A DNA stretch of 64,000 bases from Eledone cirrhosa (lineage: Eukaryota), in assembly GCA_964016885.1 (NCBI GenBank), contig OZ024740.1:181164001-181228000 (forward strand), read 5' to 3'. Below, piece after piece: positions 509 through 58,994 of the stretch. A model generated the notes under the pieces. That model was not told the origin of the DNA. It saw only the letters and a list, made by a program, of their open reading frames with translations, and ran no database searches. The translations under genes were made by a program, and so were the position numbers. The stretch's first letter is position 1, and each line of letters opens with the position of its first letter.

Positions 509-555
509 TGCCGACAGCCGTTTCGTCCGACCCCATGGTGGGACTTATCAAGGCA
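509..555 (-). ncRNA. Type I hammerhead ribozyme, U3-A8 core variant
   Basis: Minus strand reads UGCC-UUGAUAA-GUCC(caccauggggug/uc loop)GGAC-GAAAC-GGCU-GUC-GGCA: stem I UGCC/GGCA, stem II GUCC/GGAC, GUC triplet. Confidence 0.75.
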
Positions 556-1454: not shown

Positions 1455-1612
1455 AAATTATTGATACAGGATTAAAAATTATTACAAAATCATTACAAAA
1501 TTACCACAGAATCATTACAAAATTATCAAATCATCACAAAATTACCACAAAATCATTACAAAACTATCAATTATCGCAAAATTATTACAAAATTATCATA
1601 AAATTATTGCAA
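1455..1612. repeat. Degenerate ~11-bp tandem repeat (AAAATTATTAC/AAAATCATTAC) in the PLE 3' region
   Basis: Repeated units visible directly; mirrored at ~6886-7043. Confidence 0.75.
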
Positions 1613-4403: not shown

Positions 4404-5571
4404 TATGTTGAGACAGGCGGCACCATCCCGCCACCCCAGCCCAGCACTGTAATCACGCACAATATGTCCATGGGAGTTGGAGGGAGAGCTAGAAAGGCGA
4501 ATAGGGACAATAGGAAGTTAGATAAGAACAGCAACACTCGCAACGCAGACACGGACAGGGCCCGCACGCCTGGTAAGCGCTATGCCGCCCCGAGCAAGTC
4601 CAACAGTGAAAACGGGGGACAGAGGCCTAGGAGACTTGAGACCAACGCACATACCACTGGGTGTACAGCAACCACACCTGGTGGAACCAGTAATAATATA
4701 GACTAAGGGAGGGCAAACTGCATAGGGGATAGGAAATGCAGTGGAAGGAATAGAAGACGTGATAGTACCTTCTTTAACCCGCCCTTCAACTCTAATGTTA
4801 CTACAGACCTCCCCAAATCTTTTTTTCTCTTTAATAGATAAGAACTTTCCCCCGGGTAGTAGGTACGGTAGTGTCATCAATAAGAATACTGTCAAGCTAT
4901 CGTACTCTACAACCCCTAATCTGGCCTCACACCTAGCTAAGACCAATAAGAGTAAGATCAAAGAGGGACTTAAGGCCATCCGAAATAGTGAACCACGCCA
5001 GCACACACGACAACACGGGACCAACCCACTGAGTGAAAGAGCCAGGGGGATATTAGGCAATAGAACCGGTCCCACTAGGCAGCCCCGCGGCCGCTTGGAG
5101 GGACATGCACCCCTGATTGAGGGGCATGTCCCTACTAAAGAGTGTAATTGCAGAAAGAAGGACAAATGCCCACTAGCTGGACACTGCCTTATCAGGAACG
5201 TGGTATATGCTTGTAACGTAACCACAGGCACGTATACTAAGACGTACGTAAGATCAACCTTTAATGAGTTCAAGACGAGGTTCAACGCCCACCAGCATAG
5301 CTTCCGATATGAGAAGCTTAAAAATACCACGTCGTTAGCGGGGCATATACATAGCTTAAAACAAACAAAAACCCCCTACACACTCAGCTGGAGATGCCTT
5401 ACTAAGGCTCCTCCATATAGCTCGTTGAGCAGGTGTTGTAGCCTGTGCCTATCTGAATCTCATGCCATAGTATTCTCAGGGCTCAACTTGCTCAACAGGA
5501 GATCAGAAATCTTCTCGTCCTGCCCCCATACCATACTTAGCTCTTTCTTTTTCTTCAGACCGGACACATAG
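4404..5571 (+). pseudogene. Inverted PLE ORF fragment (linker and GIY-YIG endonuclease; ORF 4741-5571)
   Basis: Mirror of the left copy. The endonuclease C-terminus is intact (LSWRCLTKAPPYSSLSRCCSLCLSE...LNRRSEIFSSCPH). There is a stop at 4704-4706 and the same T-run frameshift at ~4820. Confidence 0.88.
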
Positions 5572-7942
5572 CCATGACACCACCCAGTCCTGCACGTGGC
5601 GGCCCCGCTGGCGTACATGGTGCTCTGTGGTAACCCCGGCCGCTTGGATGCCTCGGCTCCCCGATTGGCGATGGGGACTCTGGTGAGGAACAGACGACCC
5701 TGTGTCCCAATTGCCAACCTGGGATTGGTGGCAACAATGCCTGCGATGCAGGACATTGTGAGGGCCTGGAACCACGTTGACTAATCTGAGAGGGTGCCGT
5801 CGGAGATGTATGTCAACAAACTCGAGAACTGCCTAGGGAAATAGTAACAAAACACCCAATATGGCGGCCGCTCCCTGCCTATAGCAACTCACCCCCACCC
5901 CGTCCTCTAGTAAACCCCCGCCCAAATAGATGCCCCCCCCCCACATTCTTTTGAGTTGGTTCTTTATTGTCAGTGATTAGTTCTTTACTAATAGGAATTT
6001 TTTTTTGTATTTCACCACGGTCGACATAATGGGCTTGGAGAGTTGACTCCCTTGAAGTCTGACCACTCGATAAGTTAGGGGTTGTGCCCCTTGATCAGGG
6101 GTGTGTATAGCTGGTCTACCTGCTGTCTGCTACTACCCGAGACTGGACACGGTCGTAGCCACAGGCCAGCGCGTGCGCGATAGCATAGAATGTATATTTT
6201 CTGCTGGTCACCCCGTGTAATATGATACCCTAAGATTCCATGCTTGAGATTCACTGAAGCATGCGCAGTCTTAACCGGGAGATGACATGCGAACTTGAAA
6301 ATACCACAAGCGAGACCCTCTGGATAACGTAGACGCAGGACCATACCCGCAAATACATACCCTGATCTGTCTTGAATATACAGGGCTGACGGAATATGGA
6401 TAGCACGACCACCATCTAAGCTGAGAACGACCCATACAGCAAACAAAGAGAGGACAGCCCTTCGATTTTGACCAGTCGCGTGTGGACTTGGAGTTCGTAA
6501 TATACCACCCCAGTCAAATCCACACTGGTTTTTTAACGATATAGCATGTGGACCAATACATCATGCGTGGCGAAACCTTGGACTTAGAACCAGCAGGCTC
6601 GTCTATCGCGAAAGCGTTCAACCCCTGAAACTAAAGGATCGAACGGACCACATCCGGCAACCACTGGCTATTAGATCCACAGGTACATCTCCCAGAGAGT
6701 CCACGCAGATAATAGTGAACCCCAGGTGATCTATGAACGTTTAAACAAGACCAGCTGCGCCTGGAGCTATGCAGATGACTGCTTACGCCTAGTGGATATC
6801 GTGCCTGGAGCTGTGCAGGGGACTGCATAGGCAGAATGGATATCGCGCCCACACGGTCACCAGTAATGTTCATCCTGTTATATTTTTGCAATAATTTTAT
6901 GATAATTTTGTAATAATTTTGCGATAATTGATAGTTTTGTAATGATTTTGTGGTAATTTTGTGATGATTTGATAATTTTGTAATGATTCTGTGGTAATTT
7001 TGTAATGATTTTGTAATAATTTTTAATCCTGTATCAATAATTTTAGAATGTTTTTTTGTGATAATACAGGGCTAGATCACGGAAGCTACCTTGTACCTTC
7101 TTAAGGATACATTTTATGATTATTGTCTTTTTGCTTATGTATTTTCTTAGTTACCACTTTCTTTAATCTTGCCCAACTTGATAAACTCCTTGAATTGCTC
7201 CCTAATTAAATTGCTTAAATTGCTTAGATTATTGTACCTATTATGCCTAAGTTGTATCTGCTGAAGCAGCCCTTTGAAAATTCCTCGGATATCCCAAATA
7301 CCGTAATTTTTAATTTTTAACTTTTAATGTATAATTTTCCTCAATTCGTTTTTATATTTATCCTCAAAGGCTCTCTAAAATTTAAATCTTCGAAGGGTCT
7401 CTCGGAGGAAGTTCCTATTGGAAATAGTAAAGGGGCCTTTTCTGAGAGATTTATGGAAGGCTCTCTGAATTAACCTCTAATTGATTAGTTTCTTTCAATC
7501 TAGTTTTCAATTCAGTTTTCTGAATTTTGTAAACGTGATCTCGGAGGAAGAAGGTTTTTTTCTTTGTGAAAAAATTTTTTTCTCTAGAAGAAATTTCATA
7601 GGAACTCTATATATTTTTTAGGGAAACTTTATATTTTTATTTTCTTATTTTATTAGCCTCTTAATTTTCTTCTAGACTAATAGGTGTATTGGAGCCTGTA
7701 AGCTTTATGCACTCATTGAGGGATTTTCTGAGGTGCTTCTACGGGACCCCAAGTCTCTTGGTTTAATGTTGATGCGTGAATTATATATTTTTGTCTAATT
7801 TTTAAACTTCAATCCCTGACCCCGACAACTAATATAAAAGAGCCCCCCTTAAAGCGGAGTTGCTGATGTATACAACAATTTCAAACTGCTAGCCTTGAGT
7901 GATACGTTGATGTAAACAATGATCTTGCAATCACATGTTATA

Positions 7943-7989
7943 TGCCTTGATAAGTCCCACCATGGGGTCGGAAGAAACGGCTGTCGGCA
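7943..7989 (+). ncRNA. Hammerhead ribozyme, mirror copy with one stem II substitution
   Basis: TGCC TTGATAA GTCC...GGAA GAAAC GGCT GTC GGCA; GGAC has become GGAA relative to the left copy. Confidence 0.6.
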
Positions 7990-8044
7990 ATAAACTTGTT
8001 ATAATGTCATAATAGTTCCTTTGTTCTTTTTCACTTATATATAT

Positions 8045-9840: not shown

Positions 9841-10207
9841 TAGAGGGAGTGTAATTTGGAATTACTGTAGGTTGACCCGAGTGAGCACTCGAACTTTAGG
9901 CTCACTTCAGTGTCGAGGTGAAGAGCTAGAAAAAGTGTATTATAGTGAACAGATAACAAGGACGGTCGGTTACCCCTTCATTACATTTATTGGTCGGTGA
10001 TGCACGTTGCGCCAATGAACAGCTCAAGGTTCGATCTGCATCGATCTTAACCTACTCTGTAATACTAGCATTACAAGGGGGTCCGCCGAGCTGCAGATTG
10101 CAGAGTCGGGTAAGATCGATACAAATGGAACCTTGAGCTGATCATTGGCGAAACGCGCGTCACCAACCAATAAATGCAATGAAGGAGTAATCAATCGTCC
10201 TTGTTAT
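9841..10207. mobile_element. Older PLE-end foldback
   Basis: Arms 9953-10059 and 10101-10207 with mixed substitutions; tail 9841-9952. Homologous to 53751-54000. Carries the HHR 3' half GCGAAACGCGCGTC. Confidence 0.75.
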
Positions 10208-10557: not shown

Positions 10558-11929
10558 GTAGAGTTCAGATGGATGGTCTGTGGTTTTTCTTATGTATATA
10601 TATATAACGAAGGAAATGTGGTAAGGAGCCAGATGGACCATAACGCACCAAAGTACTCAATACTTAGGGTAGTAGAGTGGGTATTGGGAACGAGTAGGAC
10701 GCCGACGGCTGAGCTCAAGCCCTTTCGACGGCTAATTATGGACTAAATGAAATTTTTTATCCTGGTACATTTATAGTCGAGCATCTCAGGGGGTAATTCC
10801 ATATATGGTAAAAATGATTGTCACAAGGATTGGTCAAACGTTTGTTGTTGAGACACATAATTCTATCATGGCATTTTGTCGAAGGAAGGGGTAGCTGAAC
10901 TTGCCAGTAGAAGAAAGAGGGAGAGGGAGTGGAGGAAACCCAGTCGTGCGTTGATAGTGCCAACTACAGCCGAATCCTAAGGATAAGAGGTCAAGAAGTA
11001 TACTAGGGAGGGGAATGGGGGAGGAAGTCGAAACATTAAGTAAATCAATATGGAGTAAATATATAGAAGAATAATAAGGATGTTAAAAATATTTAAAAAA
11101 AACAACACATTTCTGGTTACTATTCCCCTACCTACAAACATCAAGTCTCTCACTGGTACTGCTAAACTATAGAACAGTTTAATAGGTGGGACGGAATACT
11201 AAATACGATATTGTAGTGAAAGAATTTTATGAGTTAGTAGTAATCGTCCAAATCTATCTTACATTGACAGGTCAACAAGTAAGGGGCCAAAATACTAAAG
11301 AAACTACTACGAAATAATAATTCAGAGTCCCGAAAATGAATACTAATACGATATATACGAGTACCGCTACGATACATAAATTCTAATACAAACTACATAA
11401 ATGCTCGTACGATATATATGAAAAATGTAATACGAAAAATTAATTCAGAATGCCCCCCCCCCCCCCCTCCCCCCCCCGACACCCACCCCAAAAATACTGA
11501 TATACGAGAAACTAAAGCAGAGTTACCACTAAGAAATCTAGAAAACACGGAAATGGGGCAGCAATCGGATAAGTAAGCAAGTATCTGGGGTCTATCACAT
11601 CTGCTATAAAAAGCGGGGTCGGCCAATTCTATCATAGAATAGGCGATGGGGGTGGGGGTACTGAGGCTACAATGGAACGAAGGGCTGCTTCGGGGTGGGC
11701 GAGAAAGTGAAAAGGACGACAACAAAGAAGGTGAACTGGGGTGGAAGGACTAGGAAGGGATGGTGGGGAAGAAGGAAATATAGGGGAAACGATAAAAAAT
11801 ATATAAGAAAATCTTACGTCTACCTTTGCAAGCAGGGGTTACCCATTACAAAGTCGGCAAGTGGGGTGTTACCCCCCACCCCCACCCCGGGTCATTATGG
11901 GGTTCGAGGGCATGGTAAGTCCTACGCAA

Positions 11930-12918
11930 TCTGTGTTTGCATGCAGTTACCAGTTCGTCTTTCTTGTTTAGGAGTTGGTCCATCGAAAACAATATTTGTA
12001 ATGTTTCCTCCGAGCATCAATTACACGGACGGCGTCCTCCCGTGTAAGAGTTGGCTCTGGACAGTATGCTCCAAGTGAGATCATAGGTTATATTGTTATC
12101 TTTGAGGTCCCATATGTGGCCCGAAAGTATGGTGGCGTGACGCCGGGCCGGGTTATGGAAAGTATGTTTGTGTTGGTATAGCCGGGTCTTGAAGTCACAA
12201 GCGGTTAATCCTATATAAGCTTTGTTGGAGGTGTCCGTCCTCACGTTGCACTGTTAGATCACATTACGATATCTGCATCTGTTGTCGAGGGGGCAAATGG
12301 ATCCATCAGGACAGTTGCGCCTTCCTGTCGGCTCTCCACTGCTTTTTAGGTTATTTCTTCCATAGGCGTTGAGTTTTGTTGTTGTTAGAGGAGACTATGT
12401 TTTCTGCAAAGTTAGGTGTGGTGCTGTAGGAGAGTTTGATGGTATTTTTGTCGATTATGTTGTGGTAGCGGTGTTGTAGTGGGAAGTGATTTTCGATGAG
12501 CCTAAAGAAGAGTTTCCCGATAGGTGTTGTCACCTCGGCGTTGTGGGGAAGATTGAACCATGTTACGTTACGTGAGCGGCGGTGTCGCCTGCTGGTTCCG
12601 CTAATGGAAGCTGGACAGTAGGATATTTCCTCCCGGAAACCACTCCGCTTGATGGCCTGGTTGTAATAAGGCGCATGTTCCTCGAATATCTGCTATTAGC
12701 GGACAAACGAGATATGCGGAGGGAGATGTTTTTAACCAGGTTATTGGTGATGTTTCTAGGATTGTTTGACCGGCGGTGGATGTAGTGAAGGTTATCGTTG
12801 GGTTTCCCCTCTGGGTAATACAGGTCATTATCGAGGTCAAGGGTAAGGTCCAGGATGTATACCCGGGTTAGGGACGTTTGTAGTGTTATTTTAAATCCCC
12901 AGTCGCGGAAGAGGCAGG
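11930..12918 (-). pseudogene. Degenerate PLE RT C-terminus and GIY-YIG endonuclease
   Basis: ILDLTLDLDNDLYYPEGKPNDNLHYIHRRSNNP; IDKNTIKLSYSTTPN; AYIGLTACDFKTRLYQHKHTF...LSGHIWDLKDNNITYDLTWSIL, split across frames. Confidence 0.85.
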
Positions 12919-13602
12919 ATTCTGAATTAATTTTTCGTATTAAATTTTTCATATATATCGTACGAGTATTTATGTAGTTTGTATTAGAATTTATGTATCG
13001 TAGCGGTACTCTTATATATCGTATTAGTATTCATTTTCGGGATTCTGAATTATTATTTCGTATTAGTTTCGGGACTCTGAATTATTATTTCGTAGTAGTT
13101 TCTTTAGTATGTTGGCCCCCTACTTGTTGACCTGTCACTGTAAGATAGATTTGGACGATTACTACTAACTCATAAAATTCTTTCACTACAATATCGTATT
13201 TAGTATTCCGTCCCACCTATTAAACTGTTCTATAGTTTAGCAGTACCAGTGAGAGACTTGATGATTGTGGTAGGGGAATAGTAACCAGAAATGTGTTGTT
13301 TTTTTTTAAATATTTTTAATATCCTTATTATTTTTCTATATATTTACTCCATATTGATTTACTTATTGTTTCGACTACCCCTCCTCCTCCCTAGTATAAT
13401 TCTTGACCTCTTATCCTTAGGATTCGGCTGTAGTTGGAACTGTCAACGCACGACTGGGTTTCCTCCACTCCCTCTCCCTCTTTCTTCTACTGGCAAGTTC
13501 AGCTACCCCTTCCTTCGCCAAAATGCCATGATAGAATTATGTGTCTCAACAACAAACTTTTGACCAGTCCTTGTGACAATCACTTTTACCATATATGGAA
13601 TT

Positions 13603-13698
13603 ACCCCCTGAGAATCTCGGCTATTCATGTACCAGGATAACAATTTTCATTTAGTCCAGATATAGCCGTCGAAACGGCTTGAGCTCAGCCGTCGGGGT
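13603..13698 (+). ncRNA. Hammerhead-like motif with imperfect core (mirror at 10699-10794, minus)
   Basis: ACCCC-CTGAGAA-..CGGCTAT...ATAGCCG..-GAAAC-GGCT(tgagctc)AGCC-GTC-GGGGT. All three stems are present, but the core deviates from CUGANGA. Confidence 0.55.
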
Positions 13699-13708
13699 CC
13701 TACTCGTT

Positions 13709-13745
<37 letters not shown>

Positions 13746-19324: not shown

Positions 19325-19648
19325 TATAAACGTTTGTATTTGTAAAGCCAAAACAATGTAGTATGGACATAGAATATAAATGCAAATGTAAAAGATATAG
19401 TTGACAATTAGTCTATTAACTTAGATTTATTTAAATGTCCTTAATTTTCGAGATAATATATCTTCTTCGGAGGGAAGTAAAGCGGTTAAACAAACCTTCT
19501 AAATAGCTTGCCAAGGAAATGGTATAGAGTATCTGTTCTATCTCTAATGTCAAAGAGTGATGGTTAGGTGGATAAAGAATAGTCTCCCTTTAAAATGGGT
19601 TTTAGTACATGTTTGTTTAAGTGTGTGGGAGAATACGTGAAGGTGTAA

Positions 19649-19683
<35 letters not shown>

Positions 19684-20249
19684 TGTGAGGAGATATGTCT
19701 ATACGTAAATGTGGGGGATAGATGCTCTCTCGTGTTAGAATTGCTCTTTCTGTGTGTATGTGTGTGTGTGAGAGAGAGAATAACACACACACACACACGC
19801 TTACACATCCATTTATTCTCTTTCACGCACAAACACATACACACACAAAGACCAATTCTAACACGAGAGAGCATCTGTCCCCCACATTTACGTATAAACA
19901 TATCTTCTCACACTCACACCCACCCACCCACACACATACTTACACCTTCACGTATTCTCCCACACACTTAAACATACATGTAAAAAAACCCTTTTAAAGG
20001 GAGACTACTCTCTATCCACCTAACCTTCACTCTTTGACATTAGAGATAGAACATATACTCTATATCATTTCGTGTGAGCATAACTTGGCAAGATATTTAG
20101 AACACTGGTTTAACCGCTTTACTTCCCTCCGAAGAAGAGATATTATCATTTGCATTTATATTCTATGTCCATACCTGCATTGTTTTGGCTTTACAAATAC
20201 AAACGTTTATACCTCACTACACAATGCTTCAAGTGAACTATAACTTCCT

Positions 20250-20326: not shown

Positions 20327-21921
20327 ATAACAATTTATCGTTTCCGTAAGAGGTTCTGAGTACTCGGTACTCTGGATTATTTTAATGTACGGCGTTGTTT
20401 GACTCAACAAGTGGTTTCCTTAGTTAGGTAGCGAGTTGCGAGAGTTCCCATGCAGGTCATTCTTGGAGTAATAGTAATGAGAGATTGAAGAATAACATGG
20501 TCGGCTGAAGAAAAAGATTTTATTTACAGTATTAACAATTGTTTCATTGATGCGGTGAATCGAAAGGCTGCGAATCACTCGAAATTGCATCACTTGACCT
20601 TAAATACAGTGTATGTCCCTGATCAAATCATCGCAATACTTGAGGGTGTAACTCATGACAATGGTATTTATAGATACATCGGAGAATCAAGTGAATGAAA
20701 ACAATAACATCAATAATAAAAGATAATAATAAAGAAGTAATAATGAAAATGATAAAGATGTAAAACATAAGTAAAAAATAAATACAAAATACGGTTGCTG
20801 ATAATAGTAGTAGTGGTGGTGGCAGTTGAAGTTATAATGGTGTGTACGTGGATGTGTAAAATAGTGATGACAGTAAAGATAACAATAACATGAAAAGAAA
20901 TACGAATTATATGATATGTTGTATATAGTGTTTATGAATTGATGAAATAAAAATGCAAGAGGTACAATAGAATATCAGAGGATTAAAATAAAAAAATTAA
21001 AATAAAAAAGGAAGAGAGAAAGAGATAAGGAAGAGGAGACAGAGAATAAGAATAAGGATTCGAGGATTAGACATATAGGGTAGGACTAAGGACGGGGAAG
21101 CAGTGGATAGATAGATAGAGAATAAAAAGTGAAATGGGCAGTGGTGATATATTGGTGATTAAGGTTGGTAGACTGATTGTTTTATCTTAATGGAGATGGT
21201 GCGGTTATAGAGAGAGAGAGAGTGAAAGAAAGGTTGGGAGATTCATGATGTTGATTTAATGTTCGGTTGGTCGGTTGACAGCTAATAATAGAGCAGTGGT
21301 GTGAAGCTAGTACATTAAAACCAGGGTGGTTTTGACTGAGTTCTGAGATTGCTGGATCAAATGATGCCGGCTGTGGTTTGAAGATAGAGAACTCGGAGGC
21401 TGCTTTGTGCCAAGAGAAAATGGTTTGCTCTATCTTGTTCATTTTATCATACTTTAAAATATGGACCAGCTCCATATTGCATAGTCGGCAGTGGGACATT
21501 CCATTTTTGTAGGCCCTTGCACTCGATAAATTCGATCAGCTAATCTCATATTCCTGGTTGATGTCCTTAAGCTGCCAGAACTTATTGGCCAGCGCCGTTA
21601 CATTCTCAAGGCTACGGTTTTTTTATAGAATGCCTATGCACATACCTTTCATGTTTACTTCTTTATTATTATCATTTATTATTGATGATGTTGTTTTCAT
21701 TCACTTGATCCCCCGATGTAACTATAATAAATACCAATGCCATGTGTTACACCCTCCAGTATTGCGATGATTTGATCAGAGACACACACTGTATTTAAGG
21801 TCGAGTGACGCAATTTCGAGTGATTAGTCGCCTTTAGACTCACCTGATCAATGAAACAATTGTTAATACTGTAAATAAACCCTGTTTGTATAGCCGACCA
21901 TGTTGTTCTTCACTCTTTCAC
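20323..21921 (-). mobile_element. 5'-truncated PLE (endonuclease C-terminus only) with inverted arms
   Basis: Arms 20478-20740 and 21655-21921. The minus strand at ~21400-21650 reads HRHSIKNRSLENVTALANKFWQLKDINQEYEIS*SNLSSARAYKNGMSHCRLCNME. Confidence 0.82.
21757..21871 (+). ncRNA. Hammerhead-like motif with long stem II and variant core (mirror at 20527-20640, minus)
   Basis: CAGTATT-GCGATGA-T-TTGATC...GATCAA-T-GAAAC-AATT-GTT-AATACTG: 7-bp stem I and palindromic stem III. Confidence 0.55.
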
Positions 21922-21940
21922 TATATATATATATATATAA

Positions 21941-28189: not shown

Positions 28190-31100
28190 TTACAGATATA
28201 TACTCAGAGTAGGCCCATTCACTCGAGCCATTCTTGCTTCTCTCACCCATCTTTCAACAAAATGCTGGGAAGAGAGCACTTCCCTCTCTACTCTGATTTT
28301 CCTTTTCAAATGAAATTTGAAAAAGTCAATCAGAGCATCACCGAACAGGTATGTGCTCGTCTTCAGCCCTTTCAAACGTGTCCACCATACTATCTCTTTC
28401 GCCATGGCCACCAGACAGATAAAAACTGCCTGCCCTTCCCGGCTAAAGGAGGAGGGCGGGGCAATCCTCACGATAGACTCAGATGATAGCCGGATCCGTC
28501 CTAAACGCGACAGCAGGTGTTCGACATAAACCCACAAGTCAGCAATTTTCGGACACTGGACGAGTGCGTGCAGGACGGTTTCGTCGCCCTGCGCGCATCT
28601 CGGACATGCCCGGCTGACGGCACCTCCATGCCTGTAGAGTTTATCCCGAACTGGCAAGGCTCCTCGGTAGCACTGCCAGGCCAGAGATTTCTGGAAATTG
28701 TCCATAGGCCCTGGCCCGAAAATTCTTCCGAAGAGTTTGGATAGTTGATTTTCGTCAACGCCCAGAGTTTCCCCAAGTACGTCGTCGCTCTTCCCGTCCA
28801 TTAATCATCTATAGAACGCCGAGGTGGAGTTTCCACCGATCACATTGCCCGATTGGTCGAGGGCTGTGAGCGCCTGAAGACATTCCAGTCTCCAGGCGCT
28901 CCCTCTCGGTCTTCGCTTGACCCAGGACTGCAGCTCCGTCAAGGAAACGAGCTGGGTAAATACGTGTCTAGCAAACGGCGACCACACCTGATCACCGTCA
29001 AGGAAGAGGTGGAGATGTCGTAGCCTGAGCACGTGCCTGCGCATCATCAGCCACGGCATGCCCAGCCCTCCACGTAGGGGGTGTTGACAACAGATGGACC
29101 GCCTGACCATCGGAGCGCGTCCCTTCCACAAAAAGCGAAAGAGCAAACGCTCCAGCGCAGTCAGGCGAGGCTTAGGACAAGGTACAACGGTCAGGCGGTA
29201 GCAGATGACAGACGCGATGTACGCGTTAGCCACCTCCGCTCGACCTTTCAGGGATAGCTTCCTCTCCGCCCATTTCTGGGTGAGAGAAGCCAACCTGCTC
29301 GTCACCTCGTCCCAGGTTTTGTCCGTCTGGAGGTCCGGACCGAACCAGACCCTAGCAATTTAACCGGTCCGTCCATCCAGCGTCCGACGACGCTGTTGGA
29401 TGGCATGGACCTGCCTCTCCAGGTGCCGAGCTGCAGGCCCACTGACTTTTCCTGGTTGATCATTGCTCCTGTCACCGCTTCGTATTCTCTTAGTGTAGTG
29501 CCGATCGCCTCGATGTGTTTGGCGTTCGACACCACTACGGTGATATCGCCCGCATATGCTGACACGGATCTTCCGCATCCTAGTTCGCGCGGGACGCCCC
29601 TCAACGACTCCAGTTTGTGCAGTAATGGCTCGAGAGTCAATACGTACAAGAGGGACGAGAGGGGACATCCTTGGCGGACTGAGCGCATGATGTTGAACTG
29701 TTCCGACAGGTGACCGTTCACTCTCACCATAGAGCAGATGTCGCTGTGTATGGCAGCGATCCAGCCTCTGAAGACGGGCCCAAAGCCAGCCGCCCTCAGG
29801 ACTGCCGCTAGGTAACGATGGTCGACCCTATCGAAAGCTTTCGACTGATCTAAATTGATCAAGGACCCACCCGTGCCAGGTTCCCTAGCTACCCTCTCTA
29901 CGATGTATCGCATGAGGTGGAGGTTGTCGTGGATGGATCTATCGGGAATGGCGCATGTCTGCGCCTCTCCCACCAGACCACCAACGACAAGCGCCAACCT
30001 CTTTGCTAGCACCTTGGCCAAAATCTTGAACTCTGTGTTTAGCAGAGTTATGGGCCGGAAATTATCTGTGTTATCCCCCTTGTTCAGATCCTTTCTCAGC
30101 AGTGCCACCGCTCCTCGGCTCACAGGACTGGGAATTCTCCCGTTCTGTTGCCAGTTGCAGTAGACGTCCGCCAAGAGGCCTCCGAACAAGTATGGCATCT
30201 GTACGTAAAGTTCATAGGGCAGACCATCCAAACCAGGCGATTTACCCCTTGTGCAGCCAGTCATTGCCTCCCTTACTTCTGCGGCTGTTATCGGCTTTTC
30301 GCAACACTTCGCCTCAGTGGCCGAGAGCCGCGGCAGTCCGTCGAGGTAGACACTAAAGTCCATCCCTCGACCCGGCCCACCACTGCCCCCGAACAGCTGA
30401 GCGAAGTGTCGCTGAAAAGCTTCACACATTTGCCCGGGATCGAGTAGCATGCGCCCGTCGTGGTCCACCAAAGACCGGATCGTGGCTTTGTTGCCACGAC
30501 GCGCCTCCGCCACTCGGGCCCATTGAAGGGCTTTCGTCCCCTCGTATCTGAGAGCACGCACCCTTGCTCTGACAATGCAGCCTTCGTGCTTTGCATTGAA
30601 GAATTGGTCAAGGGACAATTTCGCCGCAAGCACGTCGGTCGCAATGCCTTTGCTAAGCGCCTCGTCTAATTTTCTAACTAGTTCTCCCTCTGCTCTATTT
30701 TTCTCTATTGCTAAAGCCTTACTAAACCTAATGGATTCTATTCTAATCGCTCTTTTCAGAGCAAACCACCACTTGTTGTTGACGATGGCCCCCGTCAACG
30801 CCCGCTTAACTAGTTCGCTAATCCGGTCTCTGTAGGCCTTGCGCGCTGGTAAGGACGCGTTTAGCTTCCAGTAGCCGGATCGTCGTCTATGAAGCCTATC
30901 TAAGTCAAGCACACAGATCACGAATTTGTGGTCCGTGTAGCTGACTATCTTGAATTGTGGTCAGCCTATGCTTGACCCATCTATTTCCCTACAAAATACT
31001 CTATCTAGATATGATCTGGATGACTCTATGCGGTTTGTCCAAGTCCACATTGGCACATTTGGGAAATCCAATCGGTACCTGTCAGACAGTTCAAAACGCC

Positions 31101-31608
31101 TGAGCAGGTTGGTGAGGCTCTTGCACCCTCCACCCCTATCCGCTAATCCCACACAGTCCCAGCGTGCATCTAAGATCCCGTTCCAGTCGCCCACTAACAC
31201 TAAAGAGCGGGACGTTCCAAGAAAGGTCTCCAGACGCCGGAAGAAATCAGGTCGCCCTGCTCCTGTCGGCGCATAGACGGCCACTAGCCTGAAAGCTTGC
31301 CCGTCTCCGCTGGTCACGTCCAGCACCACCAGCTTACCCTCTGGGTCCAGGAAGATGGCCCGTATGGCGAGATCCAAACCTCTCCGAAAAAGCACAGCAA
31401 CTCCTCCACCGGATCCAGGACGGCTGGGAGATGCGTACACATCGTAGCCGCCCAAGATCGGTTCGAAGGCCCGTGCTTCGGAGATTCTGGTCTCGCTGAT
31501 GGCCACTACATCTATGTTTAGTGACCTGAGGTCGTTGAGCAGGTGACCCTGCTTCCATGACGACCCCAAGCCACGCGCATTTATGCTGCCTATTCTGAGT
31601 GAGGTCAT
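28190..31608 (-). pseudogene. LINE ORF2 (APE endonuclease, RT, C-terminal Cys motif), broken into four ORFs
   Basis: GSINARGL...ISET...VYAP...LVGDWN...YLDRVF; KSPGLDGLPYE, NFRPITLLNTEFKIL, DQSKAFDRV, RQGCPLS, YAGD (YADD mutated); CPRCAQGDETVLHALVQC. Confidence 0.9.
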
Positions 31609-31643
31609 GTTTAATATAGAGTGGAAAAGATGGGAAAGACCAC

Positions 31644-33731
31644 TTACCGTACTCTTGGTAGAGGAGGGATGGTTTTTACATCCCTTTTCACTTGATCGTC
31701 TGGTGAAGGGACCGTTGAATCGTCCCTTCGGCTGGTCGTCGGCTCTTCTAAGAGAATGTCTGAGTATACTCTTCGATTGATGGTTCCTCCTAGGTCCCTG
31801 AAATCACCAACTGCGTTGGGGAATTTCGTTTTAATGTTTGTGTATTGTTTCTGTGCTATTTTTAGCAGTCTTATGTTAGTTGGCGTTTTGATTGGTGCTG
31901 GTATTATGTAGTCCTGTTGTGAAATGTCTGTGTGTTCAATTATGTAAGTCATTAGTTTCTTGTGTGTATTTATTGCCGTGCATTTGTTTTTCTGGGGGTG
32001 GGGTGTGGTTCTGCTATTTTCTTGTCGTTGTAGCTGGGTGTGTGTGTTTTGTTGTTGTGTTTGCGATGTTGGTGCTTGTGGTGGTGGTGTTGAAGGTGTT
32101 GTTGGCGGTGGGGTTGTCGCCGGTGGTGATGGTGGTGCTAGTGTGGGTGGTGATGGTGTTGGTGTTGTTGCTGCTGTGGGTCTCTTTGCAGTAGACTTTA
32201 CCCTTTTCTCATTTCTTTCCTCCCTCTTCAAAGGCGACGATGCTCTGCTTCTGCGTTTGTGCCTTCTTACGACCTTTTGCCATCCCTCTCCCACCTCACA
32301 CTCCATGTCTGATTCTGTGAGGTCGGGGAGGGCTACCAGCTCCACTCTTTCACTTGTTGTTGTTGGTGATGTTTGCACTGGAGTCTCTGTTGCAGCTGCA
32401 TTTGGTATTGCTGTTGTTGTTAATATTTCCACTGCTGCTGCTGTTTTTGATTTCCGTGGAGTGGGTATGGGTGCCACGGGCCTATCGTTCCTGGTTGCCG
32501 CTTGTCCTGTTGCTGGTAGCCGTGGAGCCGGATTCGGAAGGAGGGGGGTTTTCTCCTTTCTCAGGGTCTTCTCGTTGCAGAAGGCCCTGAGGTGAGTCTT
32601 CGATCCACAGCGAAAGCATTTCGGGCGTTTGCCCTCAACACTTATGGGCAGTTGAGTGCCGTTATCGAAGTCTTTCACATCCGGGATAGCTTCGATGCAC
32701 TCCTGGTTTGTTTGGATTAGCATCTCAATGGAGGAGCCGACCCAATCTTCTCTTACTTTTTTCTGTACTTGCAGTACAGTTGTTTTGTCCTCGATTCCGA
32801 CGAGGACAGACGCGGCCAGCCAAGAAGGGGTCATTCCGGGGGGGACGTGGATCAGTTTGACCCTCACAATTTTTTGCCCGCAGTAGGAGGGCACCAACAC
32901 CATTTCCTCGCTCCTTAGGGTCACTACTGATTGGGCCTTTGCCTCCTGGGGTGTGGCAAAAAGTACGTCTACGGTGGAATATTTTTTGCCTCGGGTGATG
33001 TGCGTTTTCCGCTGCCACACAGACCCCAAGGCTTTTTGTATTTGGGCCTCTGTGTCTCTTTCCACCCTACGGGATTTTGTACTTACTGTACGGTACGTGA
33101 CCGTACAGTGCTCTTGGGTTTCGAAAAATTTTTCCGCTGCCTTGCAGATTGCTCGGTGTCCGTTCTTTGTCACCATCTTCTTCGCTTCCTCTAATTCCTC
33201 ATTTGTTATGAGGATTGTTTCCAAGTTTTTCGCAATACCTGCAAATGAGATTGGTTTTTCTCTGCTGTTGTTGTCGTCAGAGCTGCTGGTACTTTTGTTG
33301 TTGCTGCAGGTACTACGACTACTGCCTCCGCCGCTGTTGCTGTGGTTGTTGTTGGTGTTGCTGCTGCTAATGCTGTTGTTGTTTATGCTGCTGGTGATGC
33401 TGTTGCGGCTGCTACTGTTGTTTTCATTGTCACCGTTGCTGTTGTTATTACGGCTGCTACTGCTATTATTCCTGACGTCAGATGAATGAACTGGGTTTTC
33501 GTATTTCCTGCACACCTGTTTCGTCGCTGTCGTCGTCGTCGTGGAGAAACCTTGCACGCTTTGCACGAGACTTTTCTTTTCTTTCGTCACTTGCGAAAGA
33601 GAAGGGAGGGAGAGAGACACATTTAAAGAAGGGAGGGAGAGAGACAATCTTCTCTCTGCTGTAGTGATGATTGAGGAAGAAGAAGACGGAATGAGTGGGA
33701 GTGACGTATGAAATTTCTTTTTCGTAGCCAT
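31644..33731 (-). CDS. LINE ORF1 (gag-like, CCHC zinc knuckle), 695 aa
   Basis: Open frame directly upstream of ORF2, containing CFRCGSKTHLRAFC and low-complexity S/N and P/T tracts. Confidence 0.85.
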   Translation of the reverse strand: MATKKKFHTSLPLIPSSSSSIITTAERRLSLSLPSLNVSLSLPSLSQVTKEKKSLVQSVQGFSTTTTTATKQVCRKYENPVHSSDVRNNSSSSRNNNSNGDNENNSSSRNSITSSINNNSISSSNTNNNHSNSGGGSSRSTCSNNKSTSSSDDNNSREKPISFAGIAKNLETILITNEELEEAKKMVTKNGHRAICKAAEKFFETQEHCTVTYRTVSTKSRRVERDTEAQIQKALGSVWQRKTHITRGKKYSTVDVLFATPQEAKAQSVVTLRSEEMVLVPSYCGQKIVRVKLIHVPPGMTPSWLAASVLVGIEDKTTVLQVQKKVREDWVGSSIEMLIQTNQECIEAIPDVKDFDNGTQLPISVEGKRPKCFRCGSKTHLRAFCNEKTLRKEKTPLLPNPAPRLPATGQAATRNDRPVAPIPTPRKSKTAAAVEILTTTAIPNAAATETPVQTSPTTTSERVELVALPDLTESDMECEVGEGWQKVVRRHKRRSRASSPLKREERNEKRVKSTAKRPTAATTPTPSPPTLAPPSPPATTPPPTTPSTPPPQAPTSQTQQQNTHTQLQRQENSRTTPHPQKNKCTAINTHKKLMTYIIEHTDISQQDYIIPAPIKTPTNIRLLKIAQKQYTNIKTKFPNAVGDFRDLGGTINRRVYSDILLEEPTTSRRDDSTVPSPDDQVKRDVKTIPPLPRVR

Positions 33732-33944
33732 GTTGTTTTTTCTTTAAATGAATATTGGGTACAAAACCCCAATAACTGGTCATTTAACCCCGAAGGGCCA
33801 AATAACGGGCAGAAAGACCCCTCTCACGAGGAGGAGGGTGTTTTTGTCTACAAGTTCGTTAAAGTTTTAAACAATTTACAATTGTTATAGTGTTCAAAAT
33901 TTACAATACCTTACAGAGCCGAGCCTCCGTCAACCATAGCATTC

Positions 33945-38384: not shown

Positions 38385-40320
<1,936 letters not shown>

Positions 40321-41058: not shown

Positions 41059-41964
41059 TTATTTATTAAAATAACAGACTATAGTTTATGCAAAGAATCG
41101 CTGCTTTCACCCTTAACGGGATCTGGTGAAGCTAAACAAAATCAACATATGAACGCAGAAGTAAATATTTCGCAAAATGTTGCAACCGAAGGAAAACAGG
41201 AAGACGATACTTTGGTTAGTGGACACGTTCCCTGGCAAAGAACGGAAAAAAAGCTAAGATAATACGTGATACTTTGGGGCGATAACACGCAAAGACATTT
41301 ATGGTATAAATGAATTCCTAGACTAATATTCTAATTAGGTGGTTCGTGGAGACGTCCCATGGTAATGAACGGGAAAAAAACAAAGATAATACGTTATTAT
41401 GTGGGTCGGAGAGAACTACTATATGCAAACACAAACCACATCTATGGTATAAACAAAGTCGCAGACTAAAACTCCATTTAGGAAACCTAATGATTCTCGA
41501 TTCCAGAGTTAAGAATATTGTAAATCAAATACAGAGGTTAATGAAATCAACGATAATTAAATATATACATGCACGTACATATACGTACAACACATGCATA
41601 CGCGAAAACACCCGCCATGCGTATGCATATAGAAGGACGTACACAAAAACACGCGCACACATGCAAAAAACCGCGCAACCCCTGTACCCGCATGCAACGA
41701 ATATATACACCAAATACACGTAAAAAATATATTTAAAAAATATGTATATATATATATATATATATATGTAGATAAATCTACCAAGAGTTTACGGTAGTGT
41801 CCAATCCGTATGAAGAACTCAATGTAATCCGGATATCATGGAAAGAAGAGATGCAATGAAAAATCACTTTCGGTGAAAGATAAACGGAATACAGAGTCAA
41901 GAAAAAATATAAAAAAAATAATGAATAAAACAATGAAACATTTCCTTATATTAAACAAAAAAAG

Positions 41965-42118
41965 TTCATTATTTAACGATCGTTTCTAGGACATATATGT
42001 GTTAGAATTGGCATGCATATTCAACAGATCTATGTACAAAATTATACAAAATTATACAAACTATCAAAATTAAATATACATACCAACACATATATATGCC
42101 GTCTTCAGAAATAATGAA
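41965..42118 (-). ncRNA. Type I hammerhead ribozyme with extended stem II
   Basis: Reverse complement of 46571-46724. Confidence 0.75.
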
Positions 42119-42732
42119 ATATATTTATTGATAATAACAACAATTCAAAATTACAGGTCTGTTTGGGAACAGAGTTCAAATTGACCAATGAAAACACAAA
42201 AAGTTTATACAGTTAGGTGTATGTATATATGTAAGTAACTTCGTTCACAGATATGCATACAAATATATATGTTCACATGCATGCGCATGCCGAAAAGATG
42301 TATGTAAATACAAAAATTCAGGGCTAATGTCTCTGTATGTTTATAATCTACAGATACAATACGTATACGCATATAAACATATAAATATAAAAATAAATAT
42401 ATACACATTCATATACTCACACATATACATACATTCACACACACACGCGCGTATACGCATAAACATACACACAACCACGAACATACATACACACACACAC
42501 CCCACACACATATATGTGTATATACTATTATCATAAGCATATGCACATTAATGCGCGCACATAAACACTGCCACACGTATTAAGATCTAGATACAGAAAG
42601 TAGGTGGGGGGGGGAAGAAGTCAGTATTTACTGGTGTCAGCAAACTGCCTATTTATAAATGTATCTATGAATTTAGAAATAAAAAGAAAAAGAAAAAAGA
42701 AAAATATTAAGAAAATATATATATATATATAT

Positions 42733-42798
<66 letters not shown>

Positions 42799-42822
42799 AA
42801 GTAAAATATAAAATATACATCG

Positions 42823-42854
<32 letters not shown>

Positions 42855-43064
42855 ATACATATACATACATATACATACACATATACATAAACACATACAT
42901 ACACATACATATACATACACACACCATATAAATACACATACACATACACACACGCATACATATAGAGACACATACATATACACATAAAAATACATAGACA
43001 TATACATATATACACACATGTATATATATATATACACACACATACATACATATATACATTCACA

Positions 43065-43135
<71 letters not shown>

Positions 43136-43201
43136 CATATACATATATCTATACACATATATAAACACACTCATGTATATACACACATACACATACAAAC
43201 C

Positions 43202-43248
<47 letters not shown>

Positions 43249-43312
43249 ATACACACATATACACATACACACATACAAAGATATATATATATACACACAC
43301 ACATATAATATA

Positions 43313-43383
<71 letters not shown>

Positions 43384-43784
43384 TACATACACATGTATAC
43401 ATATACATACTCATACATAGACATACATATATACACACACACACATACACACATACATATACGCATATATACACATACATACACATCCATGTATGCGTAT
43501 ACACATACAAACACAACCACACGCTCACACAACTCAGACATACATAAATAAAGGGATATACATACACATATATACATATATAAATAGAGATACATATACA
43601 CATATAAATATATACACACATACACACACACACACATATACATACACACATACATATATATACACACACATATACATACATATACATATATATATAAAAA
43701 TAAAGAAATAAAAGAAATAAATAAATAAATTAATTAATACACACAGTCAGACAAATATGCACACACATACATGTACACATATAT

Positions 43785-43865
<81 letters not shown>

Positions 43866-43935
43866 CATATACATACATATATATATACACATACACACAT
43901 CAACTACAAATATATATATATATATATATATATAT

Positions 43936-44315
43936 GGAAAGTTATATTTAAATTGTTGGGTTACAACTAGTAAATATTTATAACTGATATAAACGCACTC
44001 AACAAGTATTTGGAGTATATTTACGATACTAAATAAATGGAAACTACATCTACAAAACCATATCTATTTCATCATACATACCTCAGGGACATCACACTAA
44101 CAATATGCTATGCCTTCCTCAGACAAAATACTGCCAAATCAACTTTTCAAATACAAGTCGATGTTGAACGGTATGTCAAATCTATTTATTTATAAAACTG
44201 TCTATATTGTATTTTGTCTGAAGAAGGCACAACACATCGTCAATATGACATCCCTGAAACATATATAATGAAACAAACATGGCCCTACAAATACAGCCTC
44301 CATTCATTCAACATC

Positions 44316-44318
<3 letters not shown>
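43936..44318 (-). mobile_element. Nested foldback whose arms differ only by minus-strand G-U pairs
   Basis: Arms 44022-44131 and 44209-44318 (110 bp, 32 differences, no indels or transversions); loop 44132-44208; tail 43936-44021; HHR motif CTGAAGA-AGG...CCT-GAAAC-ATAT-ATA at 44213-44272 (+). Confidence 0.88.
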
Positions 44319-44367
<49 letters not shown>

Positions 44368-44477
44368 TCACATATACATGCGCACATACGTACATATATA
44401 CACATACACACATATACACATAGACGTGCATATGCGCATACATATACATACACACATATACCCACATAAATACATAG

Positions 44478-44520
<43 letters not shown>

Positions 44521-45226
44521 TATACATATATATACATATATATATATATACATACAATCATACACCCTTATTTACATGCGCACATATGTATTTTTATACT
44601 CACATACAAACACCCAAACATACATACCTACCTACATATACATACATACATCCACGCTTACAAATGGAAATAATAATAGGGGGGGGGGGGATTATAGTAA
44701 ATATAGGTTTCAAGAAACATAGAATATTAATCTGCATTTAGATCATAATATATGTTTACATAGTAGTTTCAGTATTAGGAAATGTAAGAAAGAAGGCAAA
44801 ATTATGCATTTTAATATAAGTAGACTATTAATTATAGGTTAACTAAATTAAAGATAGTTATTATATTGATTTCTAAGGTGTATACTACTTAGGTTTATAA
44901 TATTTGAAGCGGAATTTTGAAGTTAAATAGTAGTAGAGTATTAATTATAGTATAACTAAATTAAAATTATTAACATTATGGTATCAATATTAGGAAATGA
45001 ATTTAGTAATAGGGAAAAAAACAAAATAAAGTATTACATCGGTAGTAGAATATAAATTATAGGTTAACTAAATTAAAATGTGGGCGTGTGGTTGTGTTTG
45101 TATGTGTATACGCATACATGGATGTGTATGTATGTGTATATATGCGTATATGTATGTGTGTATGTGTGTGTGTGTATATATGTATGTCTATGTATGAGTA
45201 TGTATATGTATGTATGTGTATGTATA

Positions 45227-45267
<41 letters not shown>

Positions 45268-45338
45268 TATATTATATGTGTGTGTGTATATATATATATA
45301 TATATCTTTGTATGTGTGTATGTGTATATGTGTGTATG

Positions 45339-45384
<46 letters not shown>

Positions 45385-45438
45385 GGTTTGTATGTGTATG
45401 TGTGTATATACATGAGTGTGTTTATATATGTGTATAGA

Positions 45439-45513
<75 letters not shown>

Positions 45514-45657
45514 TGTGAATGTATATATGTATATGTCTATGTATTTTTATGTGTATATGTATGTGTCTCTATATGTATGCGTGTGTGTATGTGTATTTAT
45601 ATGGTGTGTGTATGTATATGTATGTGTATGTATGTGTTTATGTATATGTGTATGTAT

Positions 45658-45689
<32 letters not shown>

Positions 45690-45723
45690 GTATGTATATC
45701 GATGTATATTTTATATTTTATTT

Positions 45724-45771
<48 letters not shown>

Positions 45772-45807
45772 ATACTTTGGGAGGGTCATGTTGATTTAGA
45801 AGAACTA

Positions 45808-45858
<51 letters not shown>

Positions 45859-45898
45859 TGTTATACTTTGGGAGGGTCATGTTGATTTAGAAGAACTA

Positions 45899-45953
<55 letters not shown>

Positions 45954-46570
45954 ATATATATATATATATATATTTTTTTTATATTTTTCTTTTTTCTTTT
46001 TCTTTTTATTTCTAAATTTATAGATACATTTATAAATAGGCAGTTTGCTGACACCAGTAAATACTGACCTCTTCCCCCCCCCCCCCACCTACTTTCTGTA
46101 TCTGGATCTTAATATGTGTGGCAGTGTTTATGTGCGCGCATTAATGTCCATATGCTTATGATAATAGTATATACACATATATGTGTGTGGGGGGGGGTGT
46201 ATGTATGTTCGTTGTTGTGTGTATGTTTATGCGTATACGCGCGTGTGTGTGTGAATGTATGTATATGTGTGAGTATATGAATGTGTATATATTTATTTTT
46301 ATATTTATATGTTTATATGCGTACACGTATTTTATCTGTAGATTATAAACATACAGAGACATTAGCCCTGAATCTTTGTATTTACATACATCTTTTCGGC
46401 ATGCGCATGCATGTGAACATATATATTTTTATGTATATCTGTGAACGAAGTTACTTACATATATACATACACCTAACTGTATAAACTTTTTGTGTTTTCA
46501 TTGGTCAATTTGAACTCTGTTCCCAAACAGACCTGTAATTTTGAATTGTTGTTATTATCAATAAATATAT

Positions 46571-46724
46571 TTCATTATTTCTGAAGACGGCATATATATG
46601 TGTTGGTATGTATATTTAATTTTGATAGTTTGTATAATTTTGTATAATTTTGTACATAGATCTGTTGAATATGCATGCCAATTCTAACACATATATATCC
46701 TAGAAACGATCGTTAAATAATGAA
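46571..46724 (+). ncRNA. Type I hammerhead ribozyme with extended stem II
   Basis: TTCATTATTT-CTGAAGA-cGGcATATATATGTGTTGG...CTAACACATATATATCCta-GAAAC-GATC-GTT-AAATAATGAA: 10-bp stem I and palindromic stem III. Confidence 0.78.
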
Positions 46725-46782
46725 CTTTTTTTGTTTAATATAAGGAACTGTTTCATTGTTTTATTCATTATTTTTTTAATAC

Positions 46783-57727: not shown

Positions 57728-58981
57728 TAGGATATGTGTTCCTTCACGCACAAGGCGCTAAGGTACGCATGTATTGTCCAACCAAATGCCAGTGTGGTTC
57801 AATGGCGGGTTAATAAATTAACGAGCCAGAACAAATATAAACAAGGTTTAGCAAATAATGAAAAAGTTTCAAAATAAATTTTAAAAAATTGACTTTACCT
57901 ACTATAGTTACCTTTACCGATCGGTTTCGAATCCCAAAAATAAAACGGAGACCATACGGCCTTCGTTGCAAAGAAAGATTCTCGTCAGAAGGTTCTTTTT
58001 ATTCAAAGAATATAAAATTCCTGAATTTAAATTACAGACTAGCGCTATCAAAACTGTTCCTGGGATGAGAGTGGATGATGTAGAAACAGGTTTATCAAGG
58101 GCCGAAGCAAAGATAGAGGCAGAAGGAGGTAGGTCAAACCAGCCACAGCTATCACTAGCAGCAGTCGGGGCGACCAAATTTGTTCTCAACATTAGAGGAG
58201 ATAGTAGTAATAGGATATGTGTTCCTTCACGCACAAGGCGCTAAGGTACGCATGTATTGTCCAACCAAATGCCAGTGTGGTTCATTGAAGTTTGCTTAAA
58301 GCATTGTGGAATAATAGGTAAATATCTTTAAGTCGTTTGGAAGCCTCGACAATGCAAATGGCTAAATCTCCGGGTAACAAGATCCGGTGGTGGAGAGAGA
58401 GATGTAAGTGGGTGTACGTTGAGATGCGTGGCGTGTATAAGACGTGTAGAGGAATGAAGGAAAGAGTATAAAGGATAAAATAAAAATAACTAGACGAGAG
58501 AGAGTTACCTTGGGAGAGATTTAATTGTCCCTATATATTTCGGATTCACATCCATCAACTGGGGTTTTTTCCGGGATGGGGGAAAGGTTGTCTGTCGGAA
58601 AGGTGCGAAACGCGTCCTCCGCCGTTTGTTGTTTTGAATCAACAAACAATAAAACAACTTTCAAAACAACAAACAGCAGAGGACGCGTTTCGCACCTTTC
58701 CGACAGACAACCTTTCCCCCACCATGGAAAAACCCCCAGTTGATGGATGTGAATCCGAAATATATAGGGACAATTAAATCTCTCCCAAGGTAACTCTCTC
58801 TCGTGTTGTTATTTTAATGTTATCCTTTATACTCTTACCTTCATTCCTCTACACGTCTTATACACGCCACGCATCACAACGTACACCCACTTACATCTCT
58901 TTCTCCACCACCGGATCTTGTTACCCGGAGATTTACCCATTTGCATTGTCGAGTCTTCCAAACGACTTAAACGTATTTACC
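57728..58981. mobile_element. Composite PLE-end insertion: duplicated 74-nt tail, HHR unit and 322-bp-arm foldback
   Basis: TAGGATATGTGTTCCTTCACG...GTGTGGTTCA at 57728-57801 and 58211-58284; arms 58317-58638 and 58660-58981. Confidence 0.82.
57910..57993 (-). ncRNA. Type I hammerhead ribozyme, canonical core
   Basis: ACCUU-CUGACGA-GAAUC...GAUUC-GAAAC-CGAUCG-GUA-AAGGU. Confidence 0.85.
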
Positions 58982-58994
58982 CATATATATATAT

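Follow-up and report, generated by a model that had tools for sequence, protein, structure and literature searches.

Feedback of A-to-I editing into the inherited genome has usually been argued from indirect statistics, and the present locus raises the question of whether such feedback can be read directly from DNA. In a 64,000-nt stretch of the Eledone cirrhosa genome (contig OZ024740.1, positions 181,164,001 to 181,228,000; hereafter the window), a sequence-only reading had described positions 43936-44318 as the probable fossil of a hairpin RNA that was hyperedited by ADAR and written back into DNA. Re-alignment of the reverse complement of 44022-44131 with 44209-44318 reproduced the 110 gap-free columns and the 32 differences reported there (14 G/A and 18 T/C, no transversions), and a re-count of the minus-strand helix likewise gave 78 Watson-Crick and 32 G-U pairs. 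The minus-strand hairpin folds with -167.6 kcal/mol (z = -15.9 against shuffles) and the plus-strand hairpin with -75.8 kcal/mol. Read along the minus strand, the piece starts with the 5' arm of the hairpin (44209..44318), an antisense copy of the 3' region of a donor Penelope-like element (PLE; its 5'-inverted piece) with 18 A-to-G changes in the window copy, followed by a 77-nt loop of donor sequence in antisense (44132..44208), which has no A-to-G change in the window copy and is 100% identical to donor copies. The donor-sense 3' arm (44022..44131) comes next, with 14 A-to-G changes in the window copy, and then the single-stranded donor 3' tail of 86 nt (43936..44021), with none. The (TA)n target flank lies at 44319..44360 on the 5' side, with a matching run at 43911-43935, and forms one continuous microsatellite in host copies without the hairpin.

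With the context reconstructed, the 5' neighbours of the 32 changed sites in the window copy were 18 U, 13 A, 1 C and no G, and the GA dinucleotides were intact as had been claimed, all nine stem adenosines with a 5' G being unaltered. Compared with the 55 unchanged adenosines, the changed sites of this copy were depleted of 5' G (p = 0.023) and of 5' G+C (p = 0.001, Fisher). As the window copy stands, four changed sites do have a 5' G, each of these being itself a former A.

The polarity of the hairpin exceeded the background of other inverted repeats, and no other foldback was polar at p < 0.01 either in the window (0 of 17 other foldback rows) or in 400 kb of unselected genome (0 of 115 foldbacks, 49 of them with at least 8 transition mismatches). 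Over these 115 controls the mismatches totalled 472 G-T versus 473 A-C, and the foldback at 9953-10207, already described as mixed, had 6 G-T, 10 A-C and 12 other mismatches in its best register. No second independent polar hairpin was found in the unselected 400 kb, the window or the other examined loci (1.12 Mb, with much redundancy), and polar hairpins are rare in the sampled part of the genome. Foldback rows formed by trinucleotide microsatellite pairs (L143, L170, and L177) or by off-register tandem arrays (L172 and L180; 13 rows with p < 0.01, removed by a 20% transversion limit) were dropped. One 40-bp segment of locus L150 carried 7 A-C and 1 G-T mismatches.

Further mixed-mismatch foldbacks in the window, located at 58314-58984, 19452-20147, 20475-21923, and 10687-13710, served as controls. 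The window also contains a near-perfect inverted duplicate at 458-8040 with 3.6-kb arms and balanced mismatches, in which pieces of a PLE ORF (3080-4400 and 4726-5571) carry the same CxCX5C linker as the host element described below. A two-ORF LINE with endonuclease and RT, presumably Tx1-like, occupies 28190-33743 on the minus strand and is broken into several frames, while an ORF on the plus strand at 39589-40212 encodes repeated Ala/Arg/Ser/Thr-rich units, which we take to resemble the N-terminal repeats of some Helitron proteins.

An assembly error was ruled out, since at least 42 genomic copies show the pattern and a short-read contig matches it exactly. This 112-nt contig of a public short-read run (kind unspecified, possibly the assembly's own sample) is identical to 44200-44311 with 0 differences. 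The contigs used came from four public runs of unspecified kind and therefore provide no measure of RNA editing.

Two parts of the sequence-only reading did not hold, namely that the locus is a single fossil and that the 383-nt piece is itself the mobile unit. A search of the genome (3.0 Gb) with the 383 nt gave copies of 94-100% identity among the best 40 of 1578 candidates, and a junction pattern identified 39 exact edited copies, which together with three variants amount to at least 42 copies or about 34 insertion events after merging twins, with four on small unplaced contigs. The hairpin proved to sit within the 3' UTR of another PLE, the host, with which it is copied as a passenger. Edited copies have kilobases of flank in common, and host 3' sequence follows in all 40 of the 40 whose flanks were checked (37 of them by marker and 3 by eye). 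Their 5' breaks fall at many points while the 3' flank is common, indicating that the host is what mobilises the hairpin. Among 30 host loci with UTR sequence, the hairpin was present in 8 and absent from 22, most of the latter having an unbroken microsatellite at the site; since such empty-site hosts exist, the hairpin was a later arrival in a single host lineage. The common host flanks and the empty sites together rule out a free 383-nt mobile unit.

In the longer copies L093, L097, and L098 an ORF with RT and GIY-YIG lies upstream of the hairpin, which, together with variable 5' breaks and a shared 3' flank, identifies the minus strand of the window as the sense strand of the host. The translations of L097 and L093, read by eye, contain a C-terminal GIY-YIG, DKT, the CxCX5C linker, and CxxC and CxH around the catalytic E and N, but no CCHH, and a Pfam search of three PLE ORFs returned no family. 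Insertion into (TA)n, 5' truncation and inverted duplicates were all observed for the host, which by its ORF motifs and insertion features is a putative Hydra-type PLE. The copy in the window is 5'-truncated and comprises the host 3' UTR and 3' end with the hairpin (41771..45080, minus strand), including a hammerhead-like core of its own from 42108 (minus strand). It adjoins a 5'-inverted duplicate of the host 3' UTR that was made at the window insertion (45081..46775, plus strand, junction to within a few bases) and that differs from the direct copy by mixed mismatches (9 G-T, 7 A-C, and 27 others).

Several host insertions consist of twins, direct plus inverted or tandem, with equal sets of stem A>G changes (L020/L022, L017/L029, L026/L118, L119/L120, L018/L132, L002/L101, and L010/L104), while L018/L125 differ by a single site and in the surroundings of a deletion. 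Provided that each round of editing adds changes, the equal sets imply a single RNA molecule as the origin of both halves of a PLE insertion, and the comparison of twins is a handle on the PLE mechanism. In six of the 42 copies (L011, L013, L101, L104, L128, and L132), the 5' truncation or inversion falls at the hairpin or within it, as though reverse transcription were stalling at this structure. Three more independent donor-related insertions (L065, L075, and L078), two of them in sense orientation with intact hammerhead-like cores, are located in microsatellites of the same host UTR, which is a trap for other PLEs.

The origin of the hairpin was traced by a search with the loop only, blind to the stem, which led to a second PLE family that has a GIY-YIG ORF of its own. 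The 3' end of this donor is the source of the 383 nt, which represent a truncated, 5'-inverted copy of it, a form that is typical of PLE insertions (PMC8557442). In 25 donor arm copies, 445 of the 450 cells at the 18 sites of the 5' arm are A and none is G; of the 350 cells facing the 14 sites of the 3' arm, 346 are T, all four exceptions falling at one site. Hence, the sites were A-T pairs ancestrally and were altered by A-to-G change on the host sense strand. The polarity proposed from the window is thereby fixed by an outgroup, in which the sites are A/T and not G/C, and C-to-U change or CpG decay from G-C pairs is ruled out. The donor arms sampled had a mixed mismatch spectrum. More distant donor relatives (L065 and L078) carry G at two of the sites, including site 211. 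At L129:1325-1806 an unedited donor copy has inserted into an edited hairpin; compared with this donor, the older arm displays nothing but the A>G changes of its own (28 G-T, 0 A-C).

A foldback with the identical junction but outside any host was found at L099 (approximately G000:C3:284528270-284528660), and it has no A>G change in the stem. It differs from the edited family by loop variants and by one change present in both arms, indicating that it is an independent twin from another donor template and not the parent. The inversion junction that it shares with the edited family suggests a template-switch hot spot, and other donor foldbacks have their junctions no more than a few bases away.

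The substitution spectrum was established from 35 full-length copies, counting distinct sites; four pairs among them are twins of one insertion. Left out were L099 (unedited), L101, L104, and L128 (truncated), L125 (deletion), L129 (interrupted), and L130 and L132 (missed by the junction pattern). In the stem, A>G occurred at 54 of 87 adenosines, compared to T>C at 4/87, C>T at 1/23, G>A at 2/23, A>T at 5 sites and A>C at 1, whereas loop and tail together showed A>G at only 2 of 60 adenosines and thus lack the A-to-G excess, which is a point that the sequence-only reading had proposed to check. Nor does the bias reach the flanks: in 600 nt of host UTR from 27 copies, A>G (13/212) and T>C (11/257, one being an alignment-edge artefact) were balanced, which rules out strand-biased mutation of the whole element. 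None of the three outcomes that the sequence-only reading had named as speaking against it was observed. At 28 stem sites G is present in at least 33 of the 35 copies, and 26 more sites vary, with 27-38 stem changes per copy (22-34 in damaged copies). The host UTR is about 99% identical to that of empty-site hosts, while about 15% of the stem bases are altered. No unedited or half-edited hairpin was found inside a host, and a search with exact patterns requiring A at N7, one of the fixed sites, matched only L099; intermediates with G at N7 would be counted among the 39 exact edited copies.

The 5' neighbours of the 28 shared sites were U (16), A (11), and C (1) but never G, corresponding to a depletion of G+C with p = 0.005 and of G alone with p = 0.053; the depletion of 5' G was lost when all ever-changed sites were pooled (p = 0.15). 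Only four sites with a 5' G ever changed, and all have a 3' G produced by an earlier change. No adenosine at a distance of up to 9 bp from a helix end is fixed (0 of 14), compared to 28 of the 73 inside (p = 0.004), and ADAR is known to avoid duplex ends. With 0 of 32 window-copy sites having a 5' G and the shared sites depleted of G+C, the ADAR-like 5' context noticed earlier is supported, and a 5' G is disfavoured in the published ADAR preference (PMC8586724, PMC4365171). The published 3' G enrichment was not seen, either at the shared sites (1/28, with few available) or at the later sites (p = 1.0). Matches to PF02137, the ADAR/ADAT deaminase family, were obtained at four loci of the genome (G000 C6:13.64 Mb, C1:146.45 Mb, C25:17.35 Mb, and C1:320.73 Mb). 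The C6 locus has intact catalytic motifs and matches human ADAR2 with E = 4e-102, and it is predicted to be an ADAR2-like deaminase gene.

The changes also run through the remnant of a donor hammerhead-like motif (44073..44122, minus strand), in which A14 (44082), A15.1 (44081), the cleavage-site A17 (44073), and N7 (44118) are now G. Loss of the hammerhead core through A-to-G changes, as read from the window, is thereby supported for A14, A15.1, and A17, where we presume the standard core numbering and the invariance of these three positions. Judged from these positions, the edits should abolish cleavage; the duplex of the foldback sequesters the motif irrespective of edits. No Rfam match was obtained in the window at gathering score. 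The donor motif has both core halves and a palindromic stem III, with a spacer of 31 nt, which is outside the descriptor of 7-17 nt given in PMC8557442. The edits change the sense helix from -172 to -157 kcal/mol and the antisense fold from -167 to -65 kcal/mol, and shorten the longest Watson-Crick run from 110 to 13.

Changes in the stem did not end with the founder pattern. Of the 59 remaining stem adenosines, 26 are G in some copies, as compared to 15 of 272 adenosines outside the stem (p = 1.6e-12); 15 of these variable sites are common to at least two copies and 11 are singletons. On a tree built from everything but the A/G states of the stem (37 informative columns), the later sites needed 74 steps versus 105.6 when shuffled, and many of them follow sublineages. 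Nested gains accompany markers outside the stem, with sites 200 and 82 in one UTR-marked lineage and sites 39, 104, 105, and 250 in another. The shared later changes are all missing from copies L013 and L030, which resemble the founder state. At site 250, an adenosine with a disfavoured 5' G, the change to G occurs solely in copies in which the 3' neighbour 251 has already become G (5/18 vs 0/17, p = 0.045). In a four-gamete test, 41 of 120 pairs of later sites failed, and sites 41, 211, 251, and 290 had no significant tree signal, with which recurrent editing of hot sites and recombination are both compatible. We regard it as likely that the later A>G changes stem from continued editing.

The explanation that we find most convincing, and hold to be very probable from these sequence patterns, is that ADAR hyperediting was fixed in the genome by retrotransposition. 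A donor PLE would have inserted a short 5'-inverted copy of its own 3' end into the (TA)n of the host PLE 3' UTR, with the tail in the direction of the host RNA, which would then have contained a perfect 110-bp duplex. ADAR would have deaminated about one third of the duplex adenosines (28/87) in both arms, the PLE reverse transcriptase would have read inosine as G, and the edited molecule would have been integrated in the germline, the edited copy becoming a source element. Since G-U pairs keep the helix, daughter RNAs would still be ADAR substrates, albeit weaker ones, and further A-to-G changes would be fixed in sublineages. Donor, empty site, polarity, strand, restriction to the stem, copy number and inheritance of the later changes are demonstrated by the sequences themselves. 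From the DNA alone, we infer with high confidence that ADAR was the enzyme, that editing took place at the RNA stage, that the PLE RT read inosine as G and that integration was in the germline. The number of rounds is likewise something we infer, and write-back probably happened more than once. That the PLE machinery performed the write-back, as suggested earlier for the window copy, is supported.

Where the first 28 edits arose concerns only the order of events within the ADAR explanation, and we incline slightly to the host RNA. This route predicts an unedited hairpin-in-host copy unless such copies have been lost, and none was found, whereas the route of the sequence-only reading, in which the first edits occurred in a read-through transcript of a free donor foldback that was then inserted into the host UTR via its own tail by the donor machinery, with only later changes arising in host RNA, does not face this absence. 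The foldback-first order would also account for a single founder pattern in 35 of 35 copies with no sister patterns, a free foldback with the same junction does exist (L099), and both orders predict the same strand. However, L099 comes from another donor template, no edited foldback was found outside a host while all 40 flank-checked edited copies lie on host 3' sequence, and the sampled donor arms are mixed in spectrum; moreover, host RNA accumulates stem A>G later, so that one process suffices. We thus consider the foldback-first order a real possibility, though one to which we would give distinctly less than even chances. It appears unlikely, on the other hand, that there was one editing event only and that the variable sites represent early side-lineages mixed by template switching or by gene conversion with donor copies. 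The site pairs incompatible with one tree (41/120), the absence of new A>G between twin copies of one insertion and the singleton A>G sites, which are modestly above background, are all in line with a single event, and conversion could account for one later site, 211, at which distant donor relatives have G. Conversion by the donor would nevertheless give G-to-A, whereas the 15 shared variable sites need a source of G, and the nested gains tracking markers outside the stem as well as the dependence of site 250 on 251 argue against mixing of one set of edits.

Two further explanations dispense with ADAR altogether. Incorporation of dC opposite A by a reverse transcriptase on a structured template would, like deamination, be specific to the sense strand, require an RNA step and possibly cluster at the duplex, and six of the 42 copies do break at or inside the hairpin. 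Error-prone RTs specific for A, as in diversity-generating retroelements, convert A to any base, whereas here A>G was found at 54 sites, A>T at 5 and A>C at 1; furthermore, avoidance of 5' G/C and of helix ends is not predicted by such errors, and polarity is not seen in foldbacks that arise at insertion, making this explanation highly improbable. Even less credible is selection on a functional hairpin RNA, or DNA repair at the hairpin level, retaining only changes that preserve pairing as G-U. The barely destabilised sense helix (-172 to -157 kcal/mol) and the collapse of the antisense fold (-167 to -65 kcal/mol) would suit such selection, but C>T should then be equally allowed, and it was found at 1 of 23 stem sites compared to 9 of 74 in the UTR. 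In addition, point mutation cannot account for 28 fixations with no intermediates while the flank diverged by about 1%, processes at the DNA level would not be tied to the transcribed strand, L099 is untouched, and the donor outgroup largely refutes selection.

One genome holds the full series from unedited donor, empty target and unedited twin foldback to a founder bearing 28 edits and to sublineages in which further ones have been added. This would imply that ADAR reaches retrotransposition-competent RNA in gamete-producing cells, that a high inosine content does not prevent an RNA from being copied and integrated, and that a ribozyme core and a DNA palindrome can be destroyed by editing while the RNA helix is spared. 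Foldbacks of one polarity inside retroelements offer a simple screen that needs only a genome, and the 87 ranked adenosines provide a yardstick for an enzyme assay. More tentatively, we speculate that ADAR may act as a recurrent, structure-guided germline mutator, such that acquired hairpins are edited at each transposition cycle and ratchet toward G-U, and that the heavy first edit may have let the hairpin lineage escape dsRNA surveillance or stalling of reverse transcription, and spread. If so, animal genomes would hold, in their G-U-polar hairpins, a general fossil record from which the activity of ADAR in the germline and its site preference could be read and dated.

Among known systems, APOBEC 'DNA editing' of endogenous retroelements, reportedly described by Carmi et al. 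in 2011, similarly involves a host deaminase and leaves clustered transitions of one type in retrotransposon copies entering the genome. Such editing, however, produces G-to-A through C deamination of single-stranded cDNA and is independent of RNA structure (PMC2873906), whereas the changes found here are sense-strand A-to-G limited to an RNA duplex. APOBEC-type editing is ruled out by the rarity of G>A in the stem (2/23, next to C>T at 1/23) and by the ancestral A-T pairs in the donor. A-to-I hyperediting of inverted repeats (PMC4365171) resembles the present case in its duplex substrate and 5' G depletion, but is confined to RNA. In the case of genomic A-to-G variants located at edited positions, a DNA G likewise mirrors the edited state; the G alleles are there ascribed to selection on ordinary mutations (PMC7186786), whereas we read the DNA change here as the direct copy of an edited molecule. 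Editing was not found in ectopic L1 RNA, which does not exclude it for endogenous elements, according to PMC5224506, and write-back of edits is not described in the accessible parts of PMC7186786, PMC8096273, and PMC5974252.

The host itself agrees with the Hydra clade of PLEs (Craig et al., 2021, PMC8557442; available text) in its ORF motifs, in inserting into (TA)n with 5' truncation and inverted duplicates, and in having a tail at one end. It differs in its microsatellite-rich 3' UTR, which exceeds 3 kb and traps other PLEs, in having RWR in place of RWK, and in the long stem II of the hammerhead-like motifs; the same text does not mention editing of PLE RNA. Our literature search, which covered papers without subscription and without their supplements, found no report of ADAR edits fixed in an endogenous, multi-copy and multi-round retrotransposon, although a prior report is possible. 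As summarised in PMC12925331 and PMC8586724, fixation of ADAR hypermutation in proviral DNA has a precedent in an inverted repeat of avian leukosis virus (Hajjar and Linial, 1995) and in the U3 of RAV-1 (Felder et al., 1994), with nearly half of the adenosines changed in the avian retroviral case, and an endogenous record over several rounds was not encountered in the literature searched. As in these viruses, the A-to-G cluster is limited to an inverted repeat in retroelement RNA that becomes DNA through reverse transcription. The avian cases, as far as described there, are single variants of exogenous viruses, whereas the element studied here is an endogenous non-LTR retrotransposon with at least 42 copies in an assembled genome, and, unlike in the viral case, the donor, the empty site and the unedited twin are preserved and later rounds are recorded.
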